Shown here one piece after another: positions 2,789-39,255 of a stretch of DNA of 64,000 bases. Numbering within the stretch: position 1 is the first letter of the stretch; each line of letters starts with the position of its first letter. Both the position numbers and the translations under genes were made by a program. Where the stretch lies: assembly GCA_964454265.1 (NCBI GenBank), contig CAYVXD010000002.1, forward strand, positions 888-64,887. The letters run 5' to 3'. Source of the stretch: an uncultured Candidatus Sumerlaeota bacterium. GTDB taxonomy: Bacteria; Sumerlaeota; Sumerlaeia; MWCT01; JAUWMI01. The notes below the pieces were generated by a model that ran no database searches, had not been told where the DNA came from, and saw only the letters and a program-made list of their open reading frames with translations.

Positions 2789-3079
2789 TCAATAACGGTT
2801 CCAATCTTGGATAACTGATGGGGTTGCAGTAGGTGTTGGGGTTGTTGTGGGTGCAGGAGTGGGAGTAGGCGTCGGTGTCTCAGTCGGAGTTGGTGTGGGA
2901 GTTGGTGTGGGAGTAGGTGAGGTGTAGGAGATATACTCTGTCCAGACCTCATCGGTTGTGGTTACGCTGTCAGTGCTGAGTTCTGCGGGAAAGGCGCCGT
3001 AGGATTGCAGGGCGTAAAATCCGTCACCCGTTGATCCTGCGTTTAGCTCGGCACGTCTGCTGAGGTGTCTACCTGCCAC
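2789..3079 (-). CDS. Probable C-terminal continuation (beta-sandwich-like segment + Pro-Thr linker TPTPTPTPTPTETPTPTPTPAPTTTPTPTATP + short tail) of the upstream 970-aa repeat protein, in another frame; frameshift or sequencing error
   Basis: This ORF overlaps the 3' end of ORF 3043..5955 by 37 nt in a different frame. A PT-rich linker followed by a short C-terminal tail is also seen inside the neighbouring secreted protein 6529..8370. There is no independent ATG (the GTG is assigned by the ORF finder). Confidence 0.4.
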   Translation of the reverse strand: MAGRHLSRRAELNAGSTGDGFYALQSYGAFPAELSTDSVTTTDEVWTEYISYTSPTPTPTPTPTPTETPTPTPTPAPTTTPTPTATPSVIQDWNRY

Positions 3080-5955
3080 GCTAGCCAGTAGGTTCCTGCG
3101 TCAAGTGTAAGATTAGTTGGGGTGCCTGCGCTGATTGGAGCAACCACGAAGTCGTCTGTTGCGGTGTTGGCAATCTGTCCGGATTGCCAGCGGAGGGTTT
3201 TAGTGGTGGCTTCTTCGTAAAGTGCAAGGCGAAGCGTTCCGCTGGAGCTGTGGGAATATAAGTATACATTCGTCGCCAAGCCTGTCTCCGGCATAGTGAA
3301 TTTGGTGGCTTTTGCGAAGCCTTTCTGTGAAAGGCCAACGCGCACTACTCGCCCAGGTCTCGTGTAAGTGCTAAAATAGGCGTATCCTGTGAGCTGATCG
3401 ATCACCGCGCTCTCAAGATCATTCTCTCCCGAATTCAGCGTCACGGCACCCACCCGGCTCGGTGGGTTGGAACCTGAACCCAGCGCTACCTTCACCACTC
3501 GCCCGGGACTGGTAGAAGTGCCGAAATAGGCGTAGCCGGCCGAGGGATCGATCACCGCGCTCTCAAGATCATTCTCTCCCGAATTCAGCGTCACGGTACC
3601 CACCCGGCTCGGTGGATTGGAACCCGAACCCAGCTCTACCTTCACCACCCGCCCGGGACTGTTCCAAGTGCCGAAATAGGCGTATCCTGCGGATGAATCG
3701 ATCACCGCACATTGTAGAGAATTTTCTCCCGAATTCAAGGTTACTGCTCCGATGCGGGTTGGGGGGTTGGCGCCTGACCCCAGCCCTATTTTCACTACTT
3801 TCCCAGGCAAGGTATAGGTACCGAAGTAGGCATAGCCGGCAGAGGGGTCGATCACCGCGGCGCGGAGTCCATCCTCTCCTGAATTCAGGGTTACCGCTCC
3901 AACACGTGTGGGCGGGTTAGCGCCCGTGCCTAGCGCTACCTTTACCACTCGTCCGGGGCTGGTAGCCGTGCCGAAGTAGGCATAGCCTGCAGACGGATCG
4001 ATCACTGCACTCGCGAGATAGTCTTCCAATGGATTCGTTGCTACCGCTCCCACCCGGCTGAAGGTAGAAAGGTCAATCTTAACCACCTGCGGGGTTGTAC
4101 TACTGGTGCCGAAGTAGGCATAGCCCGCCGAGGAATCAATCACCGCACACCGGAGATTGTACTCTGGGAAACTCAGCGTTAATGCTGCAACGCGAGTGTT
4201 GCTTGAAAGGTCAACCTTTACTATCCACCCGCCGGGGTAGTTAGACGTGCCGAAATAGGCATATCCGGCCTGGGAATCGATTACTCCGCTCCTGAGTTCA
4301 TTCTCTCCCGCAGTGAGCATCACCCCACCCACGCGGCTCGGGGGGTTGGAGCCCGAACCCAGTGCAACCTTCACCACGAGCCCAGCGCTCGTATCTGTAC
4401 CGAAATAGACATAGCCGGACGAAGAGTCAATCACTGCGCTCACGACATGATCCTCTAACCCACTTAAAACAACATAACCCACCTCGCTAGGAGGGTTGGA
4501 ACCTGAACCAAGCGCTACCTTCATCACTTGACCCGCATCAGTGTCTGAGCCGAAATAGGCGTACCCTGCCGCCGTGTCGATTGCTGCAGACGCAAGATTA
4601 CCGACTATCAGTGTTGCTGCCCCCACGCGGGTGGGCGGGTTAGAGCCGGAACCGAGCGCCACCTTCACCACGTAGCCAGCTGCGGTATCTGTGCCGAAAT
4701 ATGCGTAACCAGCGGAAGGATCAATCACCGCGCACCGCAGTCGACCCTCTGCTGGATTCAACGACACTGCCCCGACACGGCTAGGCGGGTTAGAGCCCGA
4801 ACCGAGCGCAACCTTCACCACTTGCCCGGGGTAGCTTCGGGTTCCAAAATAGGCGTAGCCTGCGGAGGTATCGATCACCGCGCTGTATAGATACATCTCT
4901 CCAGAATTCAGTGTCACAGCCCCGACGCGGCTCGGCGGATTAGTGCCTGAGCCCAGTGCCACCTTGACCACGCGGCCAGGGTTGGTATCTGTGCCGAAGT
5001 AGGCATAACCCGCTGAGGTATCGATCGCCGCGCTCACAAGATAACTCTCCCCAGAGTTCAGTGTTAAGGCTCCGACGCGTGTGGGCGGGTTAGAGCCGGA
5101 GCCCAGTGCCACCTTGACTACTCGGCCAGGGTTGGTATCAGTGCCGAAATAGGCATAGCCCGCCGATGTGTCAATCACCGCACTCCGGAGAGCATTCTCT
5201 CCCTCATCCAGTATTAGCGATCCCACGCGGGTAAAAGTGGATAGGTTCATCTTTACCACTTTCCCTGGGCTGGTCCCAGTGCCGAAATAGGCGTAGCCTG
5301 CGGAGGTGTCGATCACCGCGCTAAGGAGATAATCATCTCCCACATTCAGCACCTCCGTGTCCAAGCGCCGAAGACCTGCATTTGGATATGCCGTGCTGCC
5401 GGGCGTATTGTTACCTGCAATCGGATCGCTGAAGCGCAGAGAGCGATCGGTGAAGACGTTGCCTGCACGGTCGGTAATCCGCACCGCAACCGTGTAGTAG
5501 CCCTCGCTGAGGCCGTGTGCGTTCCATTCCGCCTGATAGAGTCCCAGCGTTGCGTCAGTGCTCACGCCGCCCAAATTCATTGGCGCAGGCTTGAGTACAA
5601 GCGTATCTACGGGTTGCGCCTCTTCCTCGCCAGAAGCTGTGATCACCGCCTCAACGCGCTCGACACCCTCGACCCCCTTCACCACTGCCTGGATCTTTAG
5701 TTGCCCGCCGTTCTTCACCGACGGCGACGACAGGCTCGGTATCACGTGGATACGGCCATCGCCCGAACCGATTTTCTCTCCCGCCTGCACTGCAGCGGCT
5801 GGCGCAACCGCCGATTGGATAGCTGCGTTTTCATTCCCCGCAAAGCCAACTGAGCCAAAGCAAAAAAGCGGTAGCATCATAACACGTAATGCAACAACTG
5901 TGACTTTTTGCAGATAAGAAAATACTACTGCGTTGTGGGAACGTCTTTTGTCCAT
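3043..5955 (-). CDS. Secreted tandem-repeat protein, ~17 x 50-aa beta-propeller-like repeats (consensus SAVIDxSAGYAYFGTDTNPGRVVKVALGSGSNPPxRVGAxTLNSGExxLx)
   Basis: 970-aa ORF with an N-terminal hydrophobic signal-like segment (VVALRVMMLPLFCFGSVGFA). The 150-bp repeat periodicity is visible at DNA level. The C-terminal non-repeat domain ends abruptly at the frame break at ~3043-3079. Confidence 0.75.
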   Translation of the reverse strand: MDKRRSHNAVVFSYLQKVTVVALRVMMLPLFCFGSVGFAGNENAAIQSAVAPAAAVQAGEKIGSGDGRIHVIPSLSSPSVKNGGQLKIQAVVKGVEGVERVEAVITASGEEEAQPVDTLVLKPAPMNLGGVSTDATLGLYQAEWNAHGLSEGYYTVAVRITDRAGNVFTDRSLRFSDPIAGNNTPGSTAYPNAGLRRLDTEVLNVGDDYLLSAVIDTSAGYAYFGTGTSPGKVVKMNLSTFTRVGSLILDEGENALRSAVIDTSAGYAYFGTDTNPGRVVKVALGSGSNPPTRVGALTLNSGESYLVSAAIDTSAGYAYFGTDTNPGRVVKVALGSGTNPPSRVGAVTLNSGEMYLYSAVIDTSAGYAYFGTRSYPGQVVKVALGSGSNPPSRVGAVSLNPAEGRLRCAVIDPSAGYAYFGTDTAAGYVVKVALGSGSNPPTRVGAATLIVGNLASAAIDTAAGYAYFGSDTDAGQVMKVALGSGSNPPSEVGYVVLSGLEDHVVSAVIDSSSGYVYFGTDTSAGLVVKVALGSGSNPPSRVGGVMLTAGENELRSGVIDSQAGYAYFGTSNYPGGWIVKVDLSSNTRVAALTLSFPEYNLRCAVIDSSAGYAYFGTSSTTPQVVKIDLSTFSRVGAVATNPLEDYLASAVIDPSAGYAYFGTATSPGRVVKVALGTGANPPTRVGAVTLNSGEDGLRAAVIDPSAGYAYFGTYTLPGKVVKIGLGSGANPPTRIGAVTLNSGENSLQCAVIDSSAGYAYFGTWNSPGRVVKVELGSGSNPPSRVGTVTLNSGENDLESAVIDPSAGYAYFGTSTSPGRVVKVALGSGSNPPSRVGAVTLNSGENDLESAVIDQLTGYAYFSTYTRPGRVVRVGLSQKGFAKATKFTMPETGLATNVYLYSHSSSGTLRLALYEEATTKTLRWQSGQIANTATDDFVVAPISAGTPTNLTLDAGTYWLAWQVDTSADVPS
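3400..3699. repeat. Two adjacent 150-bp repeat units ~95% identical at DNA level, inside the beta-propeller repeat gene
   Basis: Units 3400-3549 and 3550-3699 share gatcaccgcgctctcaagatcattctctcccgaattcagcgtcacgg...cgcccgggactg with only ~5 substitutions in the first ~140 bp. Other units are more diverged. Confidence 0.8.
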
Positions 5956-6064
5956 CTACTCATCTCCTTGCATAATATATTTGTTTTAATGTTTTGTTTT
6001 TGCTCTTTATTTTTAAGAGATAGATTCCTATAACATACTTTGTTCAGGACAATGGGTATTACCT

Positions 6065-6300
6065 CCTGATTAGCTATGCAATTGACAATGAAGTTACTCT
6101 GGTACTTCGTGCTATTTATAGCCTTCGGTGGAAAGGCCTGCCTAACCAACAAAAAGCTAATTGTCAAGATAAACCTTTAGTCTGCTGGTCATAAATTAGG
6201 ATTGGCACTCGCGCTGGTGGGGAGAGGAATCTGTGCAAATTCTTGGTGAGAGGAAAAAGGGAAGCATTGCGTGGAAACGCGCCCATGCAGGAATTAAAGT
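6065..6300. repeat. Copy 1 of a ~240-bp conserved non-coding module (second copy at 11939-12185)
   Basis: Colinear blocks are shared with copy 2: CTGAyTAGCyATGyAAkTGACAA...GTTACTCTG...TCGTG; AAAAAGC..TTGTCAA; TAATTAkGAyTGGCAsTCGCGCyGGT; CTGTGCAAATTyTTGGTGAGAkGAAAAAGGGAA(A)GCATTrCG..GCAGGAATTAArGT. Overall identity is ~70-75% with one AT-rich indel. Confidence 0.7.
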
Positions 6301-6400
6301 AGCGTAAAGCTCAGGGTGAGGATGGAGGTGAGAGGATCTCGATTATTGCCGGGACGAGGATGAGCAAGGCTTTAGCTGCTTCGGCTGAAAATAAAAGAGC

Positions 6401-6431
6401 AGGTAAAAGATGTGGAGTTCATCTTTTACCT
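6401..6431 (-). terminator. Rho-independent terminator after secreted-protein gene 6529..8370
   Basis: 12-bp stem AGGTAAAAGATG / CATCTTTTACCT with a 7-nt loop. On the minus strand it is followed by GCTCTTTTATTTTCAG. Confidence 0.6.
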
Positions 6432-6528
6432 GACATGATCACTGTATCCAGTTTTTTCCAGCAAGGCCAAGAAGGGGTGCGCCACGGCGTACCCCTACTC
6501 AGTATTCCGCGGTTCGTTTTATTCAGGT

Positions 6529-8370
6529 CTACGGAATCGCGAGATAGTCAATCGCAACGCTGTCCATGTAGATGGTGCCGCCCTGCGCCGAGCTGAAGTC
6601 GAGCAGGTCAAGCGTCACAATGAATCCATCCTGTCCGGCCGTTGGTGAGCCAGGGAGAATTGGGGTCTCCCAGTAGACGTCGTAGTCAGTTCCACCAACT
6701 GTCGGCATTGCTCCTGGGCCAGCGCCCTGGCTGTTCAGCTCCATGGTCTGCGTCATCTGGCCGTCTTCATTCTGGATACGGAGCCTGACCTGTGGCATGG
6801 TGTTGCGTGCCACGTCACTCGCACACCTCAAGGTGTAGCTCGCACGATAGAGCTTATCCACTACATACGTAAGCTCGTTTGCCGTGCCACTGGACTGCCA
6901 CCATCCATAATTGGCATCCGCAGTGGTGCTAGCCGTGATGGAGAGCGTGCCAGTGCCTTCTCCGCCTGACGTCACCGGGCCAAATCCTACGTTGGTAACG
7001 AATCCCCAGTTGGAAAATTCGCCGCCACTGGCGTACGACTTGACCAATGTGCCAAGTGCCGGAAACGGGAACCGCTCTACAGTCACGGTATCTACATAGT
7101 GCGTTCCATACTGCGCCACGTCAAAGTCAAGCATATCAAAAGCCACACCCAGACTGCCGCTCACCACAGGCGCAAAGTAGCAGGTATATTCTTTCGTTGT
7201 TGGATCTGTGGGCAAGGAGTTGCTGTACGAGCCTGAGGCATTCACCACCTGCGTTGCTGACTCGAGTGATTGATCCTGCACCCAGCGCATACGGAACTGC
7301 GGATTCTGAGCTGCACTTGCCTGATTCGAGGAGACTTCGTACGTTGCACGGTATACGTTGTCTGCTACGTAGGCAAGTTCTGACGGCCCGGTCCATAGCC
7401 CTACGCGGTGCGTGCCATCATTTGCCGAGCTGACGCTTATCCGGCCACCACTATAGCTGGACGATGCCCCTGAGAATCCAGAACCACTCAGCGGCAGGAA
7501 TCCCCAGCCCTCCATGCTTGAATCATACGTATATTCCTTGACGAATGTAACTGGCGTTGCGGTGGGCGTCGGTGTTACGGCTGGTGTAGGAAATGCCATT
7601 GCATCGAGCTCCACCTGCCCGGGAATACTCTGCGCACTCGCGTCAAGATAGAGGCTGAACGTGCCGCCTGATGTATTGTATGCTATCAGGTCCCCATCAT
7701 CATAGAGCGTAGAATTCAACCTGGCTGCTGCATCGAAGGAGAATATCCACTCGGTATCACTCTCGCGACTGAAGGCATTGACATCTACCTGAGCTGGTAC
7801 TCCTTCAGCTGAGCCGTCAAAGTCAAGGCTGGCAGAGAACCCGCTCCCCGTGGTAAAGTGCACCATGTCCTCATCAGCTACCAGGCCTACCACGGGCAAC
7901 CGTGCATCTTCTTCAAGAGAGAATGAGAACTCGAACGGAGAGACAGCAATTACGTCTACTGCATCCAGATTCACCCTGGCTGGCAGGCCGTTGGCCGAGC
8001 CGTCCCACAGCAGGCTGATGCTCACTCCATTCCAGACCAGGAGGTCTTCATCTGCGTAAACCGTGCCGCCGATCTTTACATCTTCTGAAAGCGAGAAGAC
8101 CAGCAGGTCTTTTTCTATTAAATCCACGGCATCAATATTCACCTGTGGGGGGAGCAGGCTGGTTAAAGGCGAGCCATAGAGCGCATACGCGCCCACCCCA
8201 TCTGTATCTACCAGCTCATGGTCTGCGGGCGACAGGCTCACGTACGAGGCATCTTCATTATGCGAAAACACAAACGACGCCTCAGCAACCCCCGGCGGCC
8301 CAATACTCAGGCACACCAGCGCAGCCAGGAGCCAAAACGCTAGAACTAGCGATTGTCGATAATTTCTCAT
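6529..8370 (-). CDS. Secreted repeat protein: signal peptide, 4 x ~45-aa D/G-rich repeats, Pro-Thr linker (PTPAVTPTPTATP), then two ~150-aa beta-sandwich-like domains (GWGF... / NWGF...)
   Basis: 613-aa ORF with N-terminal MRNYRQSLVLAFWLLAALVCLSIGPPGVAEA (signal-like). Internal repeats read DLLVWNGVSISLLWDGSANGLPARVNLDAVD / DMVHFTTGSGFSASLDFDGSAEGVPAQVDVNAF, and so on. RBS GGAGA lies 8 nt upstream of the ATG at 8370. Confidence 0.75.
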   Translation of the reverse strand: MRNYRQSLVLAFWLLAALVCLSIGPPGVAEASFVFSHNEDASYVSLSPADHELVDTDGVGAYALYGSPLTSLLPPQVNIDAVDLIEKDLLVFSLSEDVKIGGTVYADEDLLVWNGVSISLLWDGSANGLPARVNLDAVDVIAVSPFEFSFSLEEDARLPVVGLVADEDMVHFTTGSGFSASLDFDGSAEGVPAQVDVNAFSRESDTEWIFSFDAAARLNSTLYDDGDLIAYNTSGGTFSLYLDASAQSIPGQVELDAMAFPTPAVTPTPTATPVTFVKEYTYDSSMEGWGFLPLSGSGFSGASSSYSGGRISVSSANDGTHRVGLWTGPSELAYVADNVYRATYEVSSNQASAAQNPQFRMRWVQDQSLESATQVVNASGSYSNSLPTDPTTKEYTCYFAPVVSGSLGVAFDMLDFDVAQYGTHYVDTVTVERFPFPALGTLVKSYASGGEFSNWGFVTNVGFGPVTSGGEGTGTLSITASTTADANYGWWQSSGTANELTYVVDKLYRASYTLRCASDVARNTMPQVRLRIQNEDGQMTQTMELNSQGAGPGAMPTVGGTDYDVYWETPILPGSPTAGQDGFIVTLDLLDFSSAQGGTIYMDSVAIDYLAIP

Positions 8371-8389
8371 AGCTTTATCTCCTTTCCAT

Positions 8390-8451
8390 CCGTTTGTCCG
8401 TTGTGTCCGTTTATCCGTTTGCCCGTTTATCCGTTTGCCCGTTTATCCGTT
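8390..8451. repeat. 8-bp-periodic array (CCGTTnnn) x 8 on the plus strand, i.e. (AACGGnnn)n on the minus strand
   Basis: CCGTT occurs at 8390, 8398, 8407, 8415, 8423, 8431, 8439 and 8447. The array lies in the 5' leader of gene 6529..8370, and its last unit overlaps the stop codon of gene 8450..8821. Confidence 0.85.
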
Positions 8452-8821
8452 ATTTGGCTTTGGTGCGGAGGTATTTAATGAAGCCTGTCAGCGTTTTTGA
8501 TACGTTCTCATATTGATCAAACACAGTCTTAAATTGCTCCGCACTGAGGTATTTCCTATCCAAAGCAACGTATAGATGGCTTTTGACCTCGGAAACCGAT
8601 GAGAGAGAATAGCCGAGAAACCTGATGAACTCCTTCCTTGAGTTCCTGTCAAACCCCTCAGCAATATTCGCCATTACCGAAACAGCAGCTCGCTGTATCT
8701 GGTCCCTGAGCCCAAAGTCTCGGGCAAAACTGCCAGTCGCTATTGTGTCATAGACCAGATTCGTCAATGCTCTTGCCTCCTGCCAGGCTCTAATGTCCTC
8801 AAACCTCTCAATCCTCGCCAT
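8450..8821 (-). CDS. Four-helix-bundle protein (23S rRNA intervening-sequence protein family / Avd-like, PF05635-type)
   Basis: 123 aa. MARIERFEDIRAWQEARALTNLVYDTI...ANIAEGFDRNSRKEFIRFLGYSLSSVSEVKSHLYVALDRKYLSAEQF matches the conserved layout of this family (W-Q-A, NIAEG, F-RFL-A-GS-E). Confidence 0.75.
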   Translation of the reverse strand: MARIERFEDIRAWQEARALTNLVYDTIATGSFARDFGLRDQIQRAAVSVMANIAEGFDRNSRKEFIRFLGYSLSSVSEVKSHLYVALDRKYLSAEQFKTVFDQYENVSKTLTGFIKYLRTKAK

Positions 8822-8833
8822 CTTCTATCCCTT

Positions 8834-8870
8834 TACGGACTAACGGACTAACTGACCAACGGTCCTACGG
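8834..8870. repeat. 8-bp-periodic array (ACGGnnnn) x 5 on the plus strand, inverted relative to array 8390-8451
   Basis: TACGG 8834, AACGG 8842, AACTG 8850, AACGG 8858 and TACGG 8866. The array sits between the stop of 8865..10430 and the start of 8450..8821. Confidence 0.8.
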
Positions 8871-10430
8871 ATGATTATTCACCGACGTGCAGCTCGTCAG
8901 GTTAAAGTTCGTGCCGTTATTGACACAGCAGTTTTCCGCGACAAGGGATTGGATAGCCTCGATCCCATCGCCTGTATTATCGGAGCACGTATTGTGGCTG
9001 ACTGTGCCGCCTTCGTTTATACGAATGCCGTTATCTCCGTTGTAAACGCAGGTATTGCCGCTGACTGTGCTGTTATCCCATGCATCGATTCCATCGTCTC
9101 CGTTGTTAGTGCAGATATTGCCGGTCACTGTGCCGTTGACACTCGAATCGATTCCATCCTCTCCGTTGTTATTGCAGATATTACCGGTGATCATACAGTC
9201 CCTGTTTGCTATGATTCCGGAACCACCATTGTTGTAACAGCGCAGGGCATCAAATTGGGATTTCTCTGCCACACCAGCGTGAATTCCGCTCCCCCGCCAG
9301 TCGCGCACGGTGCCATTGCGGATGGCAATGTTATATTGGGCACCGTTGACATAGATGCCATGGCCAGTGGTCCCTGCTGCTTTGCCAGGCCCAATTAATG
9401 CGTGACCGTTCAGGTCCAGCGTGACATTGTCGGCATCAATAGTGATGCCATTTGTGTTCTGCGTAGCCAGCGTGAGGTCGCCAGTCAGGCGATACATTCC
9501 GGGCTGGGAGATGCTGTAGGGCAGCTCGCTTATGAGAATATCCAATTGATTGTCCGCTACCGCATCCACCGGTGTCGTGTTTCCGATCAAGGTGTTCCCT
9601 GAGACGATATTGTCAGCACCGTCAAGGTCCAGCCCGCGGTCATTATCCGTACAATGATTATCGCTAATACGATTGTCAGAACCAGTAGCGAGTATGCCAG
9701 CACCATCTCCTCCACTGCCGTTCGAGTCGCAGGTATTATCCACTACCCGGCAATCACTCGACACCTGTATTCCATCGCCGGTGTTACTCTGGCAGGTATT
9801 GCCGCTGACCGTGCAGCCTTCGTATGTATGGATGCCGTCGCCTGTATTACTACTGGAGGAATTGCCGGTAACTGTGCTGCCATTCCATGCAAATATGCCG
9901 TTGCCTCCGTTTTCACGGCAGGTATTGCCGCTGGCAATGCTGCCATGGCGTACATTGATGCCGTAGTCTTCGTTAGCTCTGCAGATATTGCCGCTGACTA
10001 TGCTGCAAGCGCCTGTAATGATGCCACCGATACCGTTGTTATAACATCGCAATGCCTCAAACTGACAGTTTTCGGAGAGTATGGCATTAACCCCATTCCA
10101 CTGCCAGTCGCGCACGGTCCCATTGCGTACGGCAATGTTGTATTGAGCTCCGCTGACCACGATTCCAGTGCCATATCCCCCTGCTGCTTTACCAGGCCCG
10201 ATTATCGCATGCCCGTTCAGGTCCAGGGTGACATTGTCCGCGTCAATAGTGATGCCATGCGTATTAGTCTGGGTTGTGGATAGGTCATCAACTACAATAT
10301 ATGAACCGGAGCTGGAGATGGTGTAAGGAATCTCTGCGATGTCAATCTGCCCATCACCAGCCCAGGCAGCTGCCCCCAGCAAAAGACACAAACCAAGAAT
10401 ACAAGCCGTTGTTGTGATACGTCGTTTCAT
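8865..10430 (-). CDS. Secreted right-handed parallel beta-helix repeat protein (pectate-lyase/NosD-like fold), two tandem modules
   Basis: 521 aa with a signal peptide (MKRRITTTACILGLCLLLGAAAWA). It shows repeated G-N-x-C-x-x-N-x-x-D-G-I beta-helix rungs. The N-terminal ~85-aa module (GDGQIDIAEIPYTISSSGSYIVVDDLS...NGHAIIGPGK) recurs internally (ELPYSISQPGMYRLTGDLT...NGHALIGPGK) and at the N-terminus of 10616..11668. Confidence 0.75.
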   Translation of the reverse strand: MKRRITTTACILGLCLLLGAAAWAGDGQIDIAEIPYTISSSGSYIVVDDLSTTQTNTHGITIDADNVTLDLNGHAIIGPGKAAGGYGTGIVVSGAQYNIAVRNGTVRDWQWNGVNAILSENCQFEALRCYNNGIGGIITGACSIVSGNICRANEDYGINVRHGSIASGNTCRENGGNGIFAWNGSTVTGNSSSSNTGDGIHTYEGCTVSGNTCQSNTGDGIQVSSDCRVVDNTCDSNGSGGDGAGILATGSDNRISDNHCTDNDRGLDLDGADNIVSGNTLIGNTTPVDAVADNQLDILISELPYSISQPGMYRLTGDLTLATQNTNGITIDADNVTLDLNGHALIGPGKAAGTTGHGIYVNGAQYNIAIRNGTVRDWRGSGIHAGVAEKSQFDALRCYNNGGSGIIANRDCMITGNICNNNGEDGIDSSVNGTVTGNICTNNGDDGIDAWDNSTVSGNTCVYNGDNGIRINEGGTVSHNTCSDNTGDGIEAIQSLVAENCCVNNGTNFNLTSCTSVNNHP

Positions 10431-10560
10431 AGTGCCGTCCTCCTTCTCTTTGTCACTTTACTTTGCAGTTCTACGTTTCGCCGTCTTACGCACTGTTAAA
10501 CCAATACGAACACAAGATATTCCATACTCTCAAAATCCACCCACTCCCCTCCTTTCTCTA

Positions 10561-10616
10561 AACGGACTAACTGACCAACGGACTAACGGTCTCAACCGAC
10601 AAACCGGCCAACCAAT
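10561..10616. repeat. 8-bp-periodic array (AACGG/AACCG nnn) x 7
   Basis: AACGG 10561, AACTG 10569, AACGG 10577, AACGG 10585, AACCG 10594, AACCG 10602 and AACCA 10610. It is preceded by CCTTTCTCTAAACGG, as in the other copies, and overlaps the stop of 10616..11668. Confidence 0.8.
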
Positions 10617-11668
10617 CAGAACGAGACGTTAAGCAAGTCGCCTGCACCCACCGTATTGCCACCAACAATATCGTAGTTTATGCCGTTTCCGCTGGCGCGA
10701 TTGCTGGCAATGTAGTTGCCCGTCGCCGGGTTGCAGTCAATCCCGCGGTCATTATCATTCACCAGGTTGCGTTCAATGCAATTGTCTGAACTCGTTGTGT
10801 GGATGCCCGCTCCATCTCCTGTACTGAAGCCGTTAGAGCCGCACGCATTGTCTACAACCCGGCAATCATAAGAGACTTGTATTCCGTCCCCTGTGTTGAA
10901 GCTGCAGTTATTTCCGCTGACCATACTGCCACCGGTATTGATACCGTAGTATCCGTTGCTGCCGCAGCTATTGCCAGTAACCGTACCGCCAGCCAGTACA
11001 GAGATGCCGTGGATCGTGTTGAACTGGCAGGCATTACCAATGACCGCACATCTTTCCTCTGCTTCAATGCCGTCCGCACCGTTTGAGCGGCAGGCATTGC
11101 CGCTGATCGAACAGCCTTCCCCCGCATCGATACCGTCGTCGCCGTTGCTCATGCAGACGTTTCCGCTGATTGCACAGCCATGGGATGCATAGATGCCGTC
11201 GTACGTGTTTTCATAGCAGGTATTACCGCTGACCGTACTGCCAGGGCCTGCAATAATGCCGCGGGAACCGTTGTTATAGCAACGCAGGGCCTCAAACTGG
11301 CTGTTGTAGGCGTAATCGCCATTAACGCCCGTCTGACGCCAGTCGCGCACGGTGCCATTGCGGATGGCAATGTTATATTTGGTACCATTAACAAAGATGC
11401 CATGGCCAGTGGTGCCTTCTACTTTTCCGGGGCCAATTATCGCATGACCGTTCAGGTCCAGTGTTACATTGTCGGCGTCAATAATAATGCCATCTATGTC
11501 AGTCGCAGTTGTGGACAGGTCGTCAACTACAATATAGGAGCCGGAGCTGGATATAGCATAAGGAATCTCAGCAATGTCAATCTGTCCATCACCAGCCCAT
11601 GCCCATGCGCCCAGCAAAAGCGACAATCCAATTATGCAAGCAATTTTTGTAATACTTCGCTTCATCAT
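10616..11668 (-). CDS. Secreted right-handed parallel beta-helix repeat protein, paralogue of 8865..10430
   Basis: 350 aa. The N-terminal 85 aa are ~85% identical to the paralogue (MMKRSITKIACIIGLSLLLGAWAWAGDGQIDIAEIPYAISSSGSYIVVDDLSTT...). Beta-helix rungs follow, such as GNTCYENTYDGI, GNVCMSNGDDGI and GNACRSNGADGI. Confidence 0.75.
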   Translation of the reverse strand: MMKRSITKIACIIGLSLLLGAWAWAGDGQIDIAEIPYAISSSGSYIVVDDLSTTATDIDGIIIDADNVTLDLNGHAIIGPGKVEGTTGHGIFVNGTKYNIAIRNGTVRDWRQTGVNGDYAYNSQFEALRCYNNGSRGIIAGPGSTVSGNTCYENTYDGIYASHGCAISGNVCMSNGDDGIDAGEGCSISGNACRSNGADGIEAEERCAVIGNACQFNTIHGISVLAGGTVTGNSCGSNGYYGINTGGSMVSGNNCSFNTGDGIQVSYDCRVVDNACGSNGFSTGDGAGIHTTSSDNCIERNLVNDNDRGIDCNPATGNYIASNRASGNGINYDIVGGNTVGAGDLLNVSF

Positions 11669-11791
11669 TTGATCACTCCTTTTTTGTTAGAATAGTATGG
11701 AACGTACACTTTTGCATCTCGCATTGTTTTCGTGCCAATCCCACAAGGACTCTTCGCACTCCAACAATACACGCCTCACCACCTTTCTCTA

Positions 11792-11852
11792 AACGGACTA
11801 ACTGACCAACGGTCTAACGGACTAACCGACCAACGGACATACGAATTAACCG
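11792..11852. repeat. 8-bp-periodic array (AACGG/AACCG nnn) x 8 in the leader of 10616..11668
   Basis: AACGG 11792, AACTG 11800, AACGG 11808, AACGG 11816, AACCG 11824, AACGG 11832 and AACCG 11848. It is preceded by the same CCTTTCTCTAAACGGACTAACTGACCAACGG block as at 10546. Confidence 0.8.
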
Positions 11853-11938
11853 ACTTTACACAACGAGCTTTCCAACTTTCACCTTCTCTGGTTTGGACTA
11901 TTTAAAAATGTAAAACCGGGTAGCAAAGTGCATCATTT

Positions 11939-12185
11939 ACTGACTAGCCATGTAAGTGACAACGCGGTTACTCTGACGCATCGTGATAGTGTATAATTTT
12001 TGTATCCATTTTTTTTTAATAAAAAGCAAAATTATTGTCAAACAGAATATCTAGTTTTCTGATTTTTAATTATGACTGGCAGTCGCGCCGGTTTGCATAA
12101 GAGCCTGTGCAAATTTTTGGTGAGATGAAAAAGGGAAAGCATTACGGGCAAACTGGCTCACGCAGGAATTAAGGTGACGCGATGG
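11939..12185. repeat. Copy 2 of the ~240-bp conserved non-coding module (see 6065-6300); contains an AT-rich insertion ~12000-12060
   Basis: Aligned blocks are as listed for copy 1. TGTATAAT lies at 11990-11997 (extended -10-like). Confidence 0.7.
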
Positions 12186-12384
12186 TCAGTCCAACAACCT
12201 GGTGGCCCAGGCGGCTTCATTCCGTAGCATTCAATTGCACCCATTTTTCCTCTTTACAAACACTGGTGGTATTGGCCAGAGTATTTCGGATTTGTGCGAC
12301 GAGTGCGCCTCTGGAGTAACGGAATCAGCCTGAGGCTGATAAATTGGGTGCGAATACGCGGCGCAGGGGTGAAGGGAGTGCGTG

Positions 12385-13146: not shown

Positions 13147-13375
13147 AGTGGCTCGACCATAATCCTGCCGACATTTTTCTCCTTGAAAGGGCAATTTAAG
13201 CATATCCAGTGATCTTTACGTCGTTCTTCCCTCAAGCACAATCGCGCTATTGGCTGCCGGGAGATACGTGTTCGAAGAAACGTAAAAAAGCTATTGACAT
13301 GGCTTACAAGTGTAGGCTACCGCTTATTTGTGTTGTTAATTGGGCGAATCTAAAGATGCCGGAGGATCAATATTC

Positions 13376-13813
13376 ATGAAGAGAAGAGCCAAAAAAGTTT
13401 CCAGTCCACCACGTCTGTCTGAAGCTGAATGGATTATTATGAAGCCGTTCTGGGAACGGGGCGCACTGGCTGCCCGAGACCTATTCGCCGCACTTCCGTC
13501 TAATAATCAATGGGCTTATAAGACGGTGAAGACAATGCTTGCCCGGCTGGTAAAAAAGGCTGCTCTCGAATACACTCAGGTGGGAAACTCTTATCTCTAC
13601 CGTGCTCGATTCGGGCAGGAGGAGATGGTGAGGGCGGCGGTTAAGAATTTTTCCCACCGCGTGTTGGATGGGGCACTCAAACCTTTTCTTGTTCACTTTT
13701 TTGACGGTAGAGAGCCCTCGGCAGAGGAAATCTCTACTCTGCGCGGCATTCTTAAACAACTTAAGGAACAGCAAGCGCATGATAATGAGAAAAATGCGAG
13801 GAACAAAAAATGA
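13376..13813 (+). CDS. BlaI/MecI/CopY-family transcriptional repressor
   Basis: MKRRAKKVSSPPRLSEAEWIIMKPFWERGALAARDLFAALP...AYKTVKTMLARLVKKAALEY is a winged-helix penicillinase-repressor layout. GGAGG lies ~10 nt upstream of ATG 13376. The stop overlaps the next gene start (ATGA), consistent with translational coupling. Confidence 0.8.
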   Translation: MKRRAKKVSSPPRLSEAEWIIMKPFWERGALAARDLFAALPSNNQWAYKTVKTMLARLVKKAALEYTQVGNSYLYRARFGQEEMVRAAVKNFSHRVLDGALKPFLVHFFDGREPSAEEISTLRGILKQLKEQQAHDNEKNARNKK

Positions 13814-16800
13814 TGAATGCAATTATCACATTCTGGGCGCAATGGATGCTCGCCACATCGTGGCAGCTAGTAGTCATGGTTATAGTGGTTGGTGCTTTAT
13901 GTTTCTTTTGGCGCAAAGCCCCGGTGCGGATGCTGCATTTGCTCTGGCTTTTGGTTTTTATCAAACTCCTTATCCCACCGCATCTGGGACATGATTATTC
14001 GCTTGCCAATCTCCTGGTGCGTTCGGAAATTTTCACATCGCAGCATTTAGCGGTCAATAGTGCGCAAGAGGAATGGCAAGTTCCTGCCGTGCATTTGTCC
14101 AGGACTGCAATCGAAGGCCCAATTGCCATCGAGGATGAGAGCGTAATAAGCGATAATGAGGTCGGTTCATCTCTTCCGTCCACATCAGTTCAAGAATTTC
14201 CTATTGTCTCTGGTATAGGGCAATTTACTTACCAGCATATTCTTTTTGTCCTTTGGCTGGTGGGCGCTGCAGGGCTTTTGCTTAGAAGTTTGATGAGTGC
14301 CGGCAGATTCCGGGGGTGGTTATCTGCTTACGGACAGCCGCCACCTTCATGGTTTAAAGAAAAACTGGCAGAATGGTCTCAGAAATTCAGGCTCAGAGAA
14401 CCCCCAGGATGCTTTATTGTTTCGGGGAGCCATTGTCCGTGCCTTTTCGGCTGGTTCAAGCCCCAATTACTCTTCCCCAAGGATTTGTTAAAGCGCTTGA
14501 CCCCGGAGCAACTGCAAATGGCTGTTTATCACGAATTAACTCATATAAAGGGGAGGGATACCATTATGAACGGGCTGCAAAGTTTACTGCAAATTGTTTA
14601 CTGGTTTCATCCGCTGGTCTGGTTGGCGGGACGCGAGGTTCGGCATTACCGGGAGATGGTGGTGGACGAGGCAGTCGTATCTGCTCATAAGAACTTACCC
14701 AAGCATACCTATGAGCAAACGATTCTTGCCCTGGCAGAGCATAGTCCGGCACGCCCGGTGCCTGCGATGGTGGGAATTCTTGAGCATCGCAGTTTTGTGT
14801 TTAGAAGGGTGATGCGACTCGTCGCCAGCTCCTCCACAAGAATTGGTTGGCGCCAGACGTTTTTAAGCTGGGTGATGTTAGCTCTCTTTACTTTCTTTTT
14901 TATTCCAATGGGGATAAGTCAGCCTCAGGTTTCCCCATCGGATACGCTAAACGTTGAGAAGAAAGCGTTTCCCGAAGTTCTGAATGAGGCGCAGAGGCTC
15001 TATATGCAGTGGACGGGGGAAAGATTTTCTGGGTATCTTGACAAAAGTGATTATGCTGACCTCTCAGACTCCACCAAAGCGGAGCTTGAGAAGGGATGGA
15101 TTAGCATTCTGGAAGGACCATGGAGCCGCAAATATTATGATACGATTAATTGTCTTGCGGCTCTAAAGAGCAAAAAAGCCGTGAAACCGCTGCTCCATAT
15201 TGCTGCCGAGCGCAGGGAAAAGGACAATCGCGATCGCTGGATGGCGGTCAGGGCACTGGGGATAATTGGTGATGAATCGGTGGTGCCGGAGCTTATTCAC
15301 CTGATTTATCATTACAATCAGAACACGCGGTTCTGGGCGCAGATTTCGCTCGCACGAATCACAGGCGTGAATTTCGGCTATGACTGGCAAAAATGGGGTG
15401 AGTGGTGGAATCAGCAAGGCAAGCAACCTCCATTCTCACCTGAAAAAATCACCTGGACTACCAAATACCCTGAATGGGCTGATTCACAGAAGCAAAAGGA
15501 AAGTGATAGAAACTTCGTTGAAAGATTCAGCGGCAGAAAGGAAGAAGAGTCGGCTACCGTTAGTCCTGCTCCAAAGCCTGAAGTGAACTACCTTGGGCAA
15601 GCCAATTTCCCCAGCGTTGTCGCCCTTGACCCGCCAAATGGCGCCACTGACGTCGACCCTGCCCGTGAGCACATTACCGTAACTTTTGACCGCCCAATGA
15701 TGAGAGGCGGATATTCATGGGTAGACAAGGGCAAACGCCCCAAATTAGAGAAAATCGAATGGATTAATGACCACCAGTGTCGCGCATGGGTGACTTTGGA
15801 GCCGGGCCGAGAATATGGCGTATGGCTGAATTTTGGTCCGAGAACGTGTAACTTTAAAAGTCGAGAGGGTGTCTCTGCCGACCGCGTTTACTGGACGTTT
15901 CGCACTAGTTCCGCACAGCAGACAAGTGAAGTGGGGACACTTCAAGCAAAGATAGACAAGGCACAATCCGGTGGTGTCGTCATCGTTTCGCCAGGCAAGC
16001 ACGAAGGCCCCCTGGAAATCACCAAGCCCCTGACGCTGCGTGGCGAGGATGCCCGCACCTGCACAATTGAACTACTCGGCAACGAACCAACCATCACTGT
16101 AAGAGGCACCAAGGACGCTGTCCTTGAGAATTTGACGGTTCGCTGGGCTCCAAAATCAACTGATGTGCGTATTGAATCGCCTGCTGCAATTTACGTGCGA
16201 GACAGCGACGTGGTGATTCGCGGTTGCCGTCTTGAGCCCCTTGAGCGGCCTAAAGACACACCTTACGGCCTAATGGCTGCAGGCAGATCCCACGTGACCT
16301 TTACCGAAGGCAGGAGCACGGGCTTTGCCTACGCCCTGATTTTCCTTGAGGGCGCCAACGGTACTGTCAGCAACTCCATTCTCACAGATGCCGGGCACAG
16401 CGTGGTCACACTTCATGCCAACTCTCGTGTTAAAATTATCGGAAATATCCTTGGCCGATGTGAGTATCATGCGGTGCGTAATACTGGTGGGACAATGGAT
16501 ATGACCAATAATCTGGTAATCGCTGACAATCGCGCTGGCGCTTATCTAGGTAATAAATCGGCTCACGGGCGTATCGCCAACAATCTGTTCTCCCAGAATC
16601 GCGGAGCAATCTGGGCTTATGCTAGTTCCGACGTTACTATTGAGAACAACGTCTTTCTTGCTGAAAATGGCCCCGGCGTAGGGTTCCACGACAGCTGTGA
16701 CTTAACCATACGGAATAATTGCTTTGTCAACAATGCACAAGGTCTGACCAGGTATTCAAAAGAAGGGCGACCACCTGGCATCGGTGCGCGCACCAATGGC

Positions 16801-17016
16801 AACCACTTCTGGAACAATAAAGAAGACTTCGTGGATTTTGAAAAAGAGACCTCTGCGCTATACGGCGATCCGAAATTCACCGACCCCAGTAATGGTGATT
16901 TCACACCGCAAAAAGACTCACCGCTTCTGGATAATACAGGGCACCCACTCGCCGGGCTCACTGACCCCGAACCTATCCGCGCTCTCTGGGCCACCTGGGC
17001 TGCGCTGAATCAATAG
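13810..17016 (+). CDS. BlaR1-like M56 peptidase-domain membrane sensor with a ~800-aa extracytoplasmic extension (HEAT-like, Ig-like and right-handed beta-helix modules)
   Basis: It has N-terminal TM helices and HELTHIKGRD (HExxH of M56/BlaR1) with WFHPLVW. HEAT-like repeats follow (AALKSKKAVKPLLHIAAERRE...RWMAVRALGIIGDESVVPELIHL). C-terminal beta-helix rungs include NNLVIADNRAGAYLGN, ANNLFSQNRGAIWA, ENNVFLAENGPGVGF and RNNCFVNNAQG. Confidence 0.75.
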   Translation: MMNAIITFWAQWMLATSWQLVVMVIVVGALCFFWRKAPVRMLHLLWLLVFIKLLIPPHLGHDYSLANLLVRSEIFTSQHLAVNSAQEEWQVPAVHLSRTAIEGPIAIEDESVISDNEVGSSLPSTSVQEFPIVSGIGQFTYQHILFVLWLVGAAGLLLRSLMSAGRFRGWLSAYGQPPPSWFKEKLAEWSQKFRLREPPGCFIVSGSHCPCLFGWFKPQLLFPKDLLKRLTPEQLQMAVYHELTHIKGRDTIMNGLQSLLQIVYWFHPLVWLAGREVRHYREMVVDEAVVSAHKNLPKHTYEQTILALAEHSPARPVPAMVGILEHRSFVFRRVMRLVASSSTRIGWRQTFLSWVMLALFTFFFIPMGISQPQVSPSDTLNVEKKAFPEVLNEAQRLYMQWTGERFSGYLDKSDYADLSDSTKAELEKGWISILEGPWSRKYYDTINCLAALKSKKAVKPLLHIAAERREKDNRDRWMAVRALGIIGDESVVPELIHLIYHYNQNTRFWAQISLARITGVNFGYDWQKWGEWWNQQGKQPPFSPEKITWTTKYPEWADSQKQKESDRNFVERFSGRKEEESATVSPAPKPEVNYLGQANFPSVVALDPPNGATDVDPAREHITVTFDRPMMRGGYSWVDKGKRPKLEKIEWINDHQCRAWVTLEPGREYGVWLNFGPRTCNFKSREGVSADRVYWTFRTSSAQQTSEVGTLQAKIDKAQSGGVVIVSPGKHEGPLEITKPLTLRGEDARTCTIELLGNEPTITVRGTKDAVLENLTVRWAPKSTDVRIESPAAIYVRDSDVVIRGCRLEPLERPKDTPYGLMAAGRSHVTFTEGRSTGFAYALIFLEGANGTVSNSILTDAGHSVVTLHANSRVKIIGNILGRCEYHAVRNTGGTMDMTNNLVIADNRAGAYLGNKSAHGRIANNLFSQNRGAIWAYASSDVTIENNVFLAENGPGVGFHDSCDLTIRNNCFVNNAQGLTRYSKEGRPPGIGARTNGNHFWNNKEDFVDFEKETSALYGDPKFTDPSNGDFTPQKDSPLLDNTGHPLAGLTDPEPIRALWATWAALNQ

Positions 17017-39228: not shown

Positions 39229-39255
39229 GTAGGGGCGGGGTCACCCCGCCCCTAC
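39229..39255. repeat. Perfect 12-bp-stem palindrome GTAGGGGCGGGG-TCA-CCCCGCCCCTAC overlapping the atpA stop codon
   Basis: The loop TCA is the rev-comp of the atpA TGA stop. The same 12-mer starts a second hairpin at 44746. Confidence 0.8.

Follow-up and report, generated by a model that had tools for sequence, protein, structure and literature searches.

The window analysed here, a stretch of 64,000 nucleotides (nt) from a Candidatus Sumerlaeota genome (contig CAYVXD010000002.1), carries two copies of a non-coding module of about 265 bp, which are collinear, offset by 5874 nt and surrounded by the following features:

3043-5955, minus strand: gene for a secreted protein of 970 amino acids (aa) with Ig-like repeats, downstream of copy 1
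6048-6310, minus strand: hybrid copy 1 of the module, on the upstream side of the 970-aa gene
6400-6432, minus strand: intrinsic terminator of the 613-aa gene, with a 13-bp stem and a T-run on the minus strand only
10616-11668, minus strand: 350-aa beta-helix gene, heading a four-gene operon, downstream of copy 2
11922-12186, minus strand: hybrid copy 2 of the module, on the upstream side of the 350-aa beta-helix gene, with the MBL gene divergent on the other flank

The operon is made, in this order, of the 350-aa gene, a 521-aa gene (beta-helix), a 23S-rRNA-IVP gene and the 613-aa gene, whose terminator is conserved after the 613/616-aa genes of two related loci, L017 and L016. Since its T-run is found on the minus strand only, the hairpin at 6400-6432 belongs to the 613-aa gene and is not bidirectional. 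A preliminary description of this DNA had placed the end of a stand-alone copy-1 transcript near a bidirectional hairpin (6401-6431), a view that such a one-sided hairpin does not support.

The intergenic regions 5956-6528 and 11669-12381 align collinearly across about 265 nt. When the copy-1 intergenic region is compared with the window by BLASTN, the matches fall at 11940-12175 (74.1% over 158 nt, E = 2.5e-22, and 75.5% over 49 nt, E = 7e-4). Identity between the two copies amounts to 74-75% in the alignable blocks and to 67-68% overall, the global value being 67% over the extents first described for them. BLASTN and global alignment thereby confirm the preliminary description as regards two collinear and similar non-coding copies, for which about 70-75% identity had been claimed. 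The exact blocks that it quoted as shared were likewise recovered at an offset of 5874-5875 nt, those of 9-11 nt being CTGTGCAAATT, TTGGTGAGA, GAAAAAGGGAA, GCAGGAATTAA and GTTACTCTG, and both copies do lie upstream of minus-strand secreted-protein genes (3043-5955 and 10616-11668). The one AT-rich indel by which the copies were said to differ has to be replaced by two differences, an indel of just 1 nt in GGGAA(A)GC and a stretch of about 45 nt that is of equal length and unrelated in sequence (6105-6150 versus 11979-12024). Across the 64 kb, a profile hidden Markov model (HMM) of the module finds the two copies (E = 1e-89 and 9e-82) and nothing else, the next match having an E-value of 0.5.

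An exact 21-mer scan of the GTDB species representatives pointed to one genome, a Candidatus Sumerlaeota metagenome-assembled genome (MAG; JAUWMI010000014.1), and further module sequences were reached through homologues of the neighbouring proteins and their contigs. As the list of homologues of the 970-aa protein is dominated by its 50-aa repeats, the orthologue P0167 was found by re-ranking on the N-terminal 130 aa. Three further module sequences were obtained in this way, namely L017 (from the MAG of the 21-mer match), L016 (Joint Genome Institute, JGI, metagenome 3300028837) and L024 (another contig of the same metagenome), which together with copies 1 and 2 form the set of five sequences used throughout. 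The module is therefore not a private neutral spacer, as the preliminary description had rightly argued, since other Sumerlaeota genomes have kept it (L016, L017, L024). An exact 20-mer scan of JGI metagenome contigs returned 13 matches, all of them chance matches of 20-22 nt, and a scan of viral contigs returned none. The module HMM found no copies in seven other beta-helix operons from more distant relatives (L015, L018-L023), and a test for dispersed repeats found none in about 135 kb of related loci beyond the syntenic ones.

The related loci are of two types. In type D (L016 and L017), the order is giant gene, GC-rich hairpins, module, octamer repeats, 294-aa beta-helix gene, more beta-helix genes and 613/616-aa gene; the giant gene codes for 2480 aa and is partial in L016. 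In type R (L024), the genes for a BlaR1-like M56 peptidase, Penicillinase_R and MBL all point away from one module, whose opposite side carries a 604-aa gene followed by an RNase_H_2 gene. The product of the 604-aa gene is orthologous to the 970-aa protein of the window (73% identity over the first 130 residues), and on either side of the module the backbones of L024 and the window share 89.5-91.4% identity. These orthologous flanks around a single module indicate that L024 is the locus of the window without the beta-helix operon, in other words an empty site. Judging from the sequences, R and D are old, diverged paralogues of one upstream region of about 265 bp in one Sumerlaeota lineage.

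With the five module sequences aligned on the gene strand, the 75 sites at which R differs from both D sequences were scored in the two window copies. Copy 1 reads 13 D to 2 R and then 36 R to 12 D (Fisher p = 3e-5), and copy 2 reads 9 R to 2 D and then 53 D to 5 R (Fisher p = 1.7e-6). The parts delimited by these informative sites, and the features associated with them, are as follows:

6233-6310, minus strand: D-type part of copy 1 (as L016/L017)
6048-6229, minus strand: R-type part of copy 1 (as L024)
~12132-12186, minus strand: R-type part of copy 2 (as L024)
11922-12107, minus strand: D-type part of copy 2 (as L016/L017)
6229-6265, no strand assigned: exchange zone of copy 1, in the most conserved core, which reads …TTCCTCTCACCAAGAATTTGCACAG… on the gene strand
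12104-12140, no strand assigned: exchange zone of copy 2, in alignment columns identical to those of the copy-1 zone
6311-6385, minus strand: relic of the giant-gene 3' end, about its 25 last codons, non-coding, past the 613-aa-gene terminator, translating as …AEAAKALLILVPAIIEILSPPSSP-stop (…LLILVPAIIEILSPPSSP-stop)
6233-12116, minus strand: segment of about 5.9 kb inserted relative to L024, with the D-type left part, the 350-aa, 521-aa, 23S-rRNA-IVP and 613-aa genes, the terminator, the giant-gene relic and the D-type right part

Both switches fall inside alignment columns 340-377, within a conserved core of about 35 nt, and the few sites of the exchange zone that are alike in both copies are those expected from heteroduplex repair. 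Outside the module, 40 of the 45 positions of the proximal flank between copy 1 and the ATG of the 970-aa gene match L024, and so does the flank of copy 2 on the MBL side. The relic has no upstream reading frame and resembles the C-terminus of the giant protein, …ASLILDRAIIETLSPPGLP-stop (tblastn, 61% over 23 aa, E = 0.001). The two marks of an insertion by homologous recombination, an empty site with one module in a relative (L024) and two copies that are reciprocal hybrids of recipient and donor versions (the donor type being L016/L017), are both seen, and the mosaic has a common switch zone. From the reciprocal D/R hybrids and the giant-gene relic, it follows that the two copies are the reciprocal joints of an insertion of the beta-helix operon by homologous recombination.

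In the simplest history, shown by comparison of the sequences, a D-type unit consisting of the module, the operon and a stub of the giant-gene 3' end recombined with the R-type module; a single reciprocal crossover by way of a circular intermediate, or else a pair of crossovers, would have taken place within the core of about 35 nt. The insertion of 5874 nt left two hybrid modules as direct repeats, copy 2 with R on the right and D on the left, and copy 1 with D on the right and R on the left. In this respect, the locus is like a Campbell-type or homologous-recombination insertion, where direct repeats bound the insert, each of them is a reciprocal hybrid of recipient and donor, and the exchange point is common to both. 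It differs from it in that the partners are paralogous intergenic regions of about 65% identity rather than identical sequences or att sites, that mobile-element genes are missing, and that at the donor junction the 613-aa terminator abuts a stub of 25 codons. The case of a segmental duplication of promoter DNA, which the preliminary description had set against its own proposal, hence comes near the truth, but what is seen is reciprocal recombination between two old paralogues and not a recent local duplication.

What the module does is suggested by the comparison of R with D. In all five sequences, it has the same orientation and lies 90-260 nt upstream of a secreted-protein gene, in both paralogues alike, whereas the context downstream on the plus strand differs, with the MBL gene in R and the convergent gene in D. 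Identity between R and D is 33-60% in the spacers and 80-93% in islands, with indels of just 1-2 nt over 260 nt. The islands are TTAATTCCTGC; TTCATCTCACCAA-AATTTGCA; GCGCGA-TGCCA-TCCTAATT; TTGACAAT; and GAGTAA…GTTGTCA. Islands of 8-13 nt show no change in any of the five sequences. A fixed orientation together with islands at constant spacing, among which the TTGACAAT octamer is kept in five of five, points to a shared promoter or regulatory region, and the conservation of the module in relatives, along with its islands at fixed spacing, makes a regulatory role plausible. Two candidate promoters can be proposed on the gene strand:

6139-6167, minus strand: candidate promoter of copy 1, TTGACA-N17-TAGGCA
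12013-12041, minus strand: candidate promoter of copy 2, TTGACA-N17-TAAAAA

The pattern TTGACA-N17-TAnnnA occurs three times in the window against 0.41 expected, and two of the three occurrences are the module copies. The module would thus act in cis on the downstream minus-strand secreted-protein genes, from a promoter composed of the invariant TTGACAAT as -35 box, N17 and TAnnnA. Upstream of it, Blocks B and C (about 170 bp) would serve as binding sites for proteins, Block A would make up the first 90 nt or so of the leader, and both transcription units would then be under common control. Like paralogous duplications of promoters or 5' regions that co-regulate surface-protein genes, the module is an oriented upstream region placed before different secreted-protein genes, with islands at fixed spacing and a conserved -35 box; unlike them, it has two known paralogues only, and its most conserved block lies far upstream of the putative promoter. 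Taken together, a recombination of R and D modules, combined with a role of the module as cis control region of the downstream secreted-protein genes, is the joint explanation that we regard as probable, and what was duplicated is most likely regulatory DNA, not a new RNA gene. An alternative sigma-54 promoter (TGGCAC-N5-TTGC) was considered at GATTGGCACTCGCGCTGG and rejected, as it lacks the GC of the -12 element and L017 does not keep the GG.

Several points weigh against this explanation. A sigma-70 promoter is defined by TTGACA and TATAAT hexamers 16-18 nt apart with a mapped start, and a generic sigma-70 scan reports neither of the two gene-strand candidates, owing to a -10 element without final T. 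Identity between orthologous modules (about 88-96%) is no higher than the roughly 90% of the neighbouring backbone, so that it is the R-D comparison, by itself, that provides the evidence for constraint. Recombination between R and D being directly documented in the window, the islands could be partly due to repeated R-D gene conversion rather than to selection. Besides, the five sequences come from three or four genomes only, and Block C, the most conserved part, is situated 100-180 bp upstream of the proposed promoter. The Block C helix tolerates G-U on the plus strand only, which fits a plus-strand RNA about equally well. Finally, there is the donor junction, at which the 613-aa terminator meets the giant-gene stub (~6380).

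It was on the plus strand that the preliminary description had sought the function of the module, as a small RNA or a cis-regulatory leader. According to this reading, the module would encode a non-coding plus-strand RNA, either a small RNA or, at the R locus, a long leader of MBL-blaI-blaR1, starting about 7 nt past TATAAT/TATACT and containing the Block C hairpin. The two features on which it relies are:

11968-11997, plus strand: candidate promoter, TTACTC-N18-TATAAT
6238-6295, with its copy-2 counterpart at 12112-12170, plus strand: candidate Block C hairpin, with an 11-bp basal helix, AAUUCUUGGUG / CAU-GCAGGAAUU, and a 5-bp apical stem, GCGYG-NAAA-CRCGC

The -10 hexamer is found as TATAAT in three copies and as TATACT in L024, 18 nt past an invariant TTACTC, but the -35 box is poor and the consensus scan does not report this promoter. 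When the hexamers are aligned to that of copy 2 (11992-11997), TATAAT is read in L016 and L017, TATACT in L024, and TATAGC in copy 1 (6117-6122, shifted by 1 nt). The TGnTATAAT-like elements described earlier in both copies are therefore good in copy 2, with TGTATAAT at 11990-11997, and weak in copy 1, where the counterpart is TGCTATTTA/TATAGC at 6110-6122. As to structure, Block C, the best-conserved part of the module, would fall inside such an RNA, and the RNAalifold consensus energy is -40.0 kcal/mol for the plus strand versus -21.9 kcal/mol for the minus strand. In the 16-pair Block C hairpin, 95% of the cells pair and two pairs are changed on both sides, L016 showing one double change from G-C to A-U; each of the three one-sided changes leaves a G-U or G-C pair if the plus strand is read, whereas the minus strand would have A-C. 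Nevertheless, shuffled controls of this hairpin are as good in 42 of 500 cases by pairs and in 32 of 500 by score, which is not significant with five related sequences, and copy 2 breaks two of the five apical pairs. The minimum free energy z-scores against shuffled sequences, computed on both strands, are +1.07, -0.10, -0.63 and +0.63 for whole modules and lie between -0.41 and +1.04 for Block C, taken from four copies. Rfam gives tRNA only for the whole window at gathering thresholds, and E-value searches of copies 1 and 2 and of the L017 and L024 modules give chance matches that differ between copies (E at least 0.39). In favour of the RNA, a GC-rich hairpin follows Block C in D-type loci. 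Against it, no plus-strand hairpin followed by a T-run is seen after any copy, every T-run being on the minus strand, and in D-type loci the RNA would run into the convergent gene.

That the module encodes a plus-strand RNA is thus unlikely. Of the earlier proposal, the conserved module and the plausibility of a regulatory role stand, while the RNA itself finds no support in Rfam, in the z-scores (-0.63 to +1.07), in covariation, which is not significant, or in a plus-strand terminator. The idea that copy 2 forms the 5' untranslated region of the MBL gene is not supported, as its TATAAT lies in the D-derived half, which in un-rearranged genomes faces the 3' end of the convergent 2480-aa gene; its position upstream of MBL is therefore a by-product of recombination. 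A plus-strand promoter may still serve the MBL gene in the R locus, where the hexamer is TATACT in L024 and TATAGC in copy 1. Coding by the module was also considered and is excluded by the 1-nt indels GGGAA(A)GC and AAAA-GGG (L016), which shift the frame within its most conserved block. The frames of a small-protein gene differ between copies: the GTG/ATG open reading frame (ORF) of Block C ends in another frame and at another length in each copy, and the 52-aa ORF of L024 is frameshifted and stopped in copy 2.

Another possibility, which we regard as quite improbable, is that the module has no function of its own and represents leftover homology of an old segmental duplication, patchily kept by gene conversion. 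The giant-gene relic, at 79.6% over 54 nt versus L017, is about as well conserved as the module, at 80.5% over 149 nt; recombination between R and D demonstrably occurs, and orthologue identity equals the background. However, the length and spacing of R and D have been conserved while the spacer sequence turned over completely, the islands of 8-13 nt are invariant in five of five, and the orientation towards the downstream secreted-protein gene is fixed in both paralogues. Moreover, the islands themselves contain differences between L024 and L016, two loci of one metagenome, and recent homogenisation has therefore not taken place there.

There is a slim chance that the module goes beyond a passive promoter, and either encodes a lineage-specific plus-strand RNA built on the conserved 58-nt hairpin of Block C and acting on both secreted-protein units, or is a docking sequence with a conserved core that is reused to swap surface-protein operons between loci in Sumerlaeota. 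It is very unlikely that the module as a whole is a dedicated, attachment-like recombination site that moves surface-protein operons between loci by exchange in its conserved core. Two hybrid copies do flank the inserted operon in attL/attR fashion, both switches lie in the same core of about 35 nt, the most conserved stretch, and the cargo consists of fast-evolving surface proteins. Yet Pfam scans of all neighbouring ORFs reveal no recombinase (integrase, invertase or transposase), whether within the insert or beside it, and one insertion event only is seen. R and D are homologous over about 260 nt across the exchange, on both sides, unlike attP/attB, which makes ordinary homologous recombination sufficient; the latter would also cross over in the longest identical stretch. 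An invertible promoter or a miniature inverted-repeat transposable element (MITE) was discarded for want of flanking inverted repeats common to the copies, and the missing recombinase and the long homology likewise count against an integron attC site. With repetitive extragenic palindromic (REP) elements, bacterial interspersed mosaic elements and MITE families, the module shares being non-coding, intergenic and present in more than one copy, but it differs from them in having two copies in 64 kb, one per related locus, a length of 265 bp and a fixed orientation to genes, without terminal inverted repeats or target-site duplications.

Finally, bla/mec operators occupy a divergent intergenic position and consist of a 24-30-bp imperfect dyad with a central TACANNTGTA (PMC1935004). 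That the module is such an operator, on the model of the bla/mec divergon, for the BlaI/BlaR1-type repressor-protease system next to it, is extremely unlikely and ruled out largely by the motif test. Both in the window and in L024, the R-type module does sit in a divergent intergenic region beside the genes for MBL, Penicillinase_R and an M56 peptidase, and the BlaR1-like sensor has a beta-helix domain like the secreted proteins. However, the TACANNTGTA palindrome is absent from all five module copies, the single site with one mismatch close to copy 2 (11903-11912) falls beyond the module and is not shared by L017, and D-type loci have no blaI or blaR1 nearby. The sole perfect TACANNTGTA in 64 kb is found at 13305-13314, directly upstream of the Penicillinase_R gene (13340-13813; repressor of 157 aa), and is conserved in L024 at 8517-8526. 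This operator site, TACAAGTGTA, lies inside the palindrome GCTTACAAGTGTAGGC (13299-13314), overlapping a TTGACA box. The locus is consequently like the bla/mec divergon in that an R-type module lies in the divergent region adjoining Penicillinase_R and M56 BlaR1-like genes, and unlike it in that the module has no TACANNTGTA, the operator is separate at 13305-13314, and an MBL-fold gene stands between module and repressor gene.

Some further observations concern the genes and repeats around the module. The BlaR1-like M56 peptidase (13810-17016) is fused to HEAT repeats and a beta-helix/NosD domain, an arrangement kept in L024 (4509-8018), and in its sensor domain it is similar to the secreted beta-helix proteins nearby. 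At 3340-5363, the 970-aa gene has some 13 tandem repeats of 150 nt (50 aa), and the length of only 604 aa of its L024 orthologue shows that the repeat number differs between close relatives. The C-terminal 300 aa or so of the 613-aa protein (6532-7413) are homologous to the C-terminus of the 2480-aa protein (L017, 2001-9443; 28% identity, E = 2e-16), and the final 59 aa of a 611-aa protein of L015 (11862-13697) are nearly identical to the end of the giant protein in the same MAG; these C-terminal likenesses suggest an exchange of C-terminal domains.

Tandem arrays of 8 nt, GTTAGTCC / GTTGGTCA on the gene strand, are present in every beta-helix operon spacer of the window (8389-8451, 8835-8862, 10561-10613, 11792-11854) and of L017 (9840-9874, 10891-10970, 12664-12712), and absent from the more distant operon L020; two of them, oppositely oriented, lie on either side of the 23S-rRNA-IVP gene (8450-8821). 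Hairpins of another kind, GC-rich, REP-like (GTAGGGG…CCCCTAC) and distinct from the module, recur after genes (window 6473-6498 and 39229-39255, L017 9469-9498, L016 2552-2581). They sit between giant gene and module in L016 and L017 and are absent at the equivalent point of copy 1. The purine-rich Block C stretch AGATGAAAAAGGGAAAGC (12123-12140) is 78% complementary to the pyrimidine-rich GCTTTCCAACTTTCACCT (11867-11884), just past the left end of copy 2, and the D-type-specific sequence of this pair is also found in L016 and L017. Upstream of MBL, an 11-nt inverted repeat, GCACCCATTTT / AAATTGGGTGC (12237-12247 and 12341-12351, 93 nt apart), may form a leader structure.

In the light of these data, a conspicuous non-coding duplication can be explained without a new class of RNA, by an operon that moved through recombination of diverged upstream control regions; the mechanism is an ordinary one, and no new class of element is needed. 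The module itself is real, restricted to one lineage and probably regulatory, and there is a small chance that Block C conceals a plus-strand RNA or a hotspot of recombination. More generally, a conserved and duplicated intergenic block, even when accompanied by -10-like boxes, is not by itself evidence of a small RNA. The module of about 265 bp, with its invariant islands, is now defined as a candidate regulatory region that can be tested for transcription-factor sites or for RNA, and the locus provides a concrete case of genome rearrangement, with possible swapping of promoter regions, in the uncultivated phylum Sumerlaeota.

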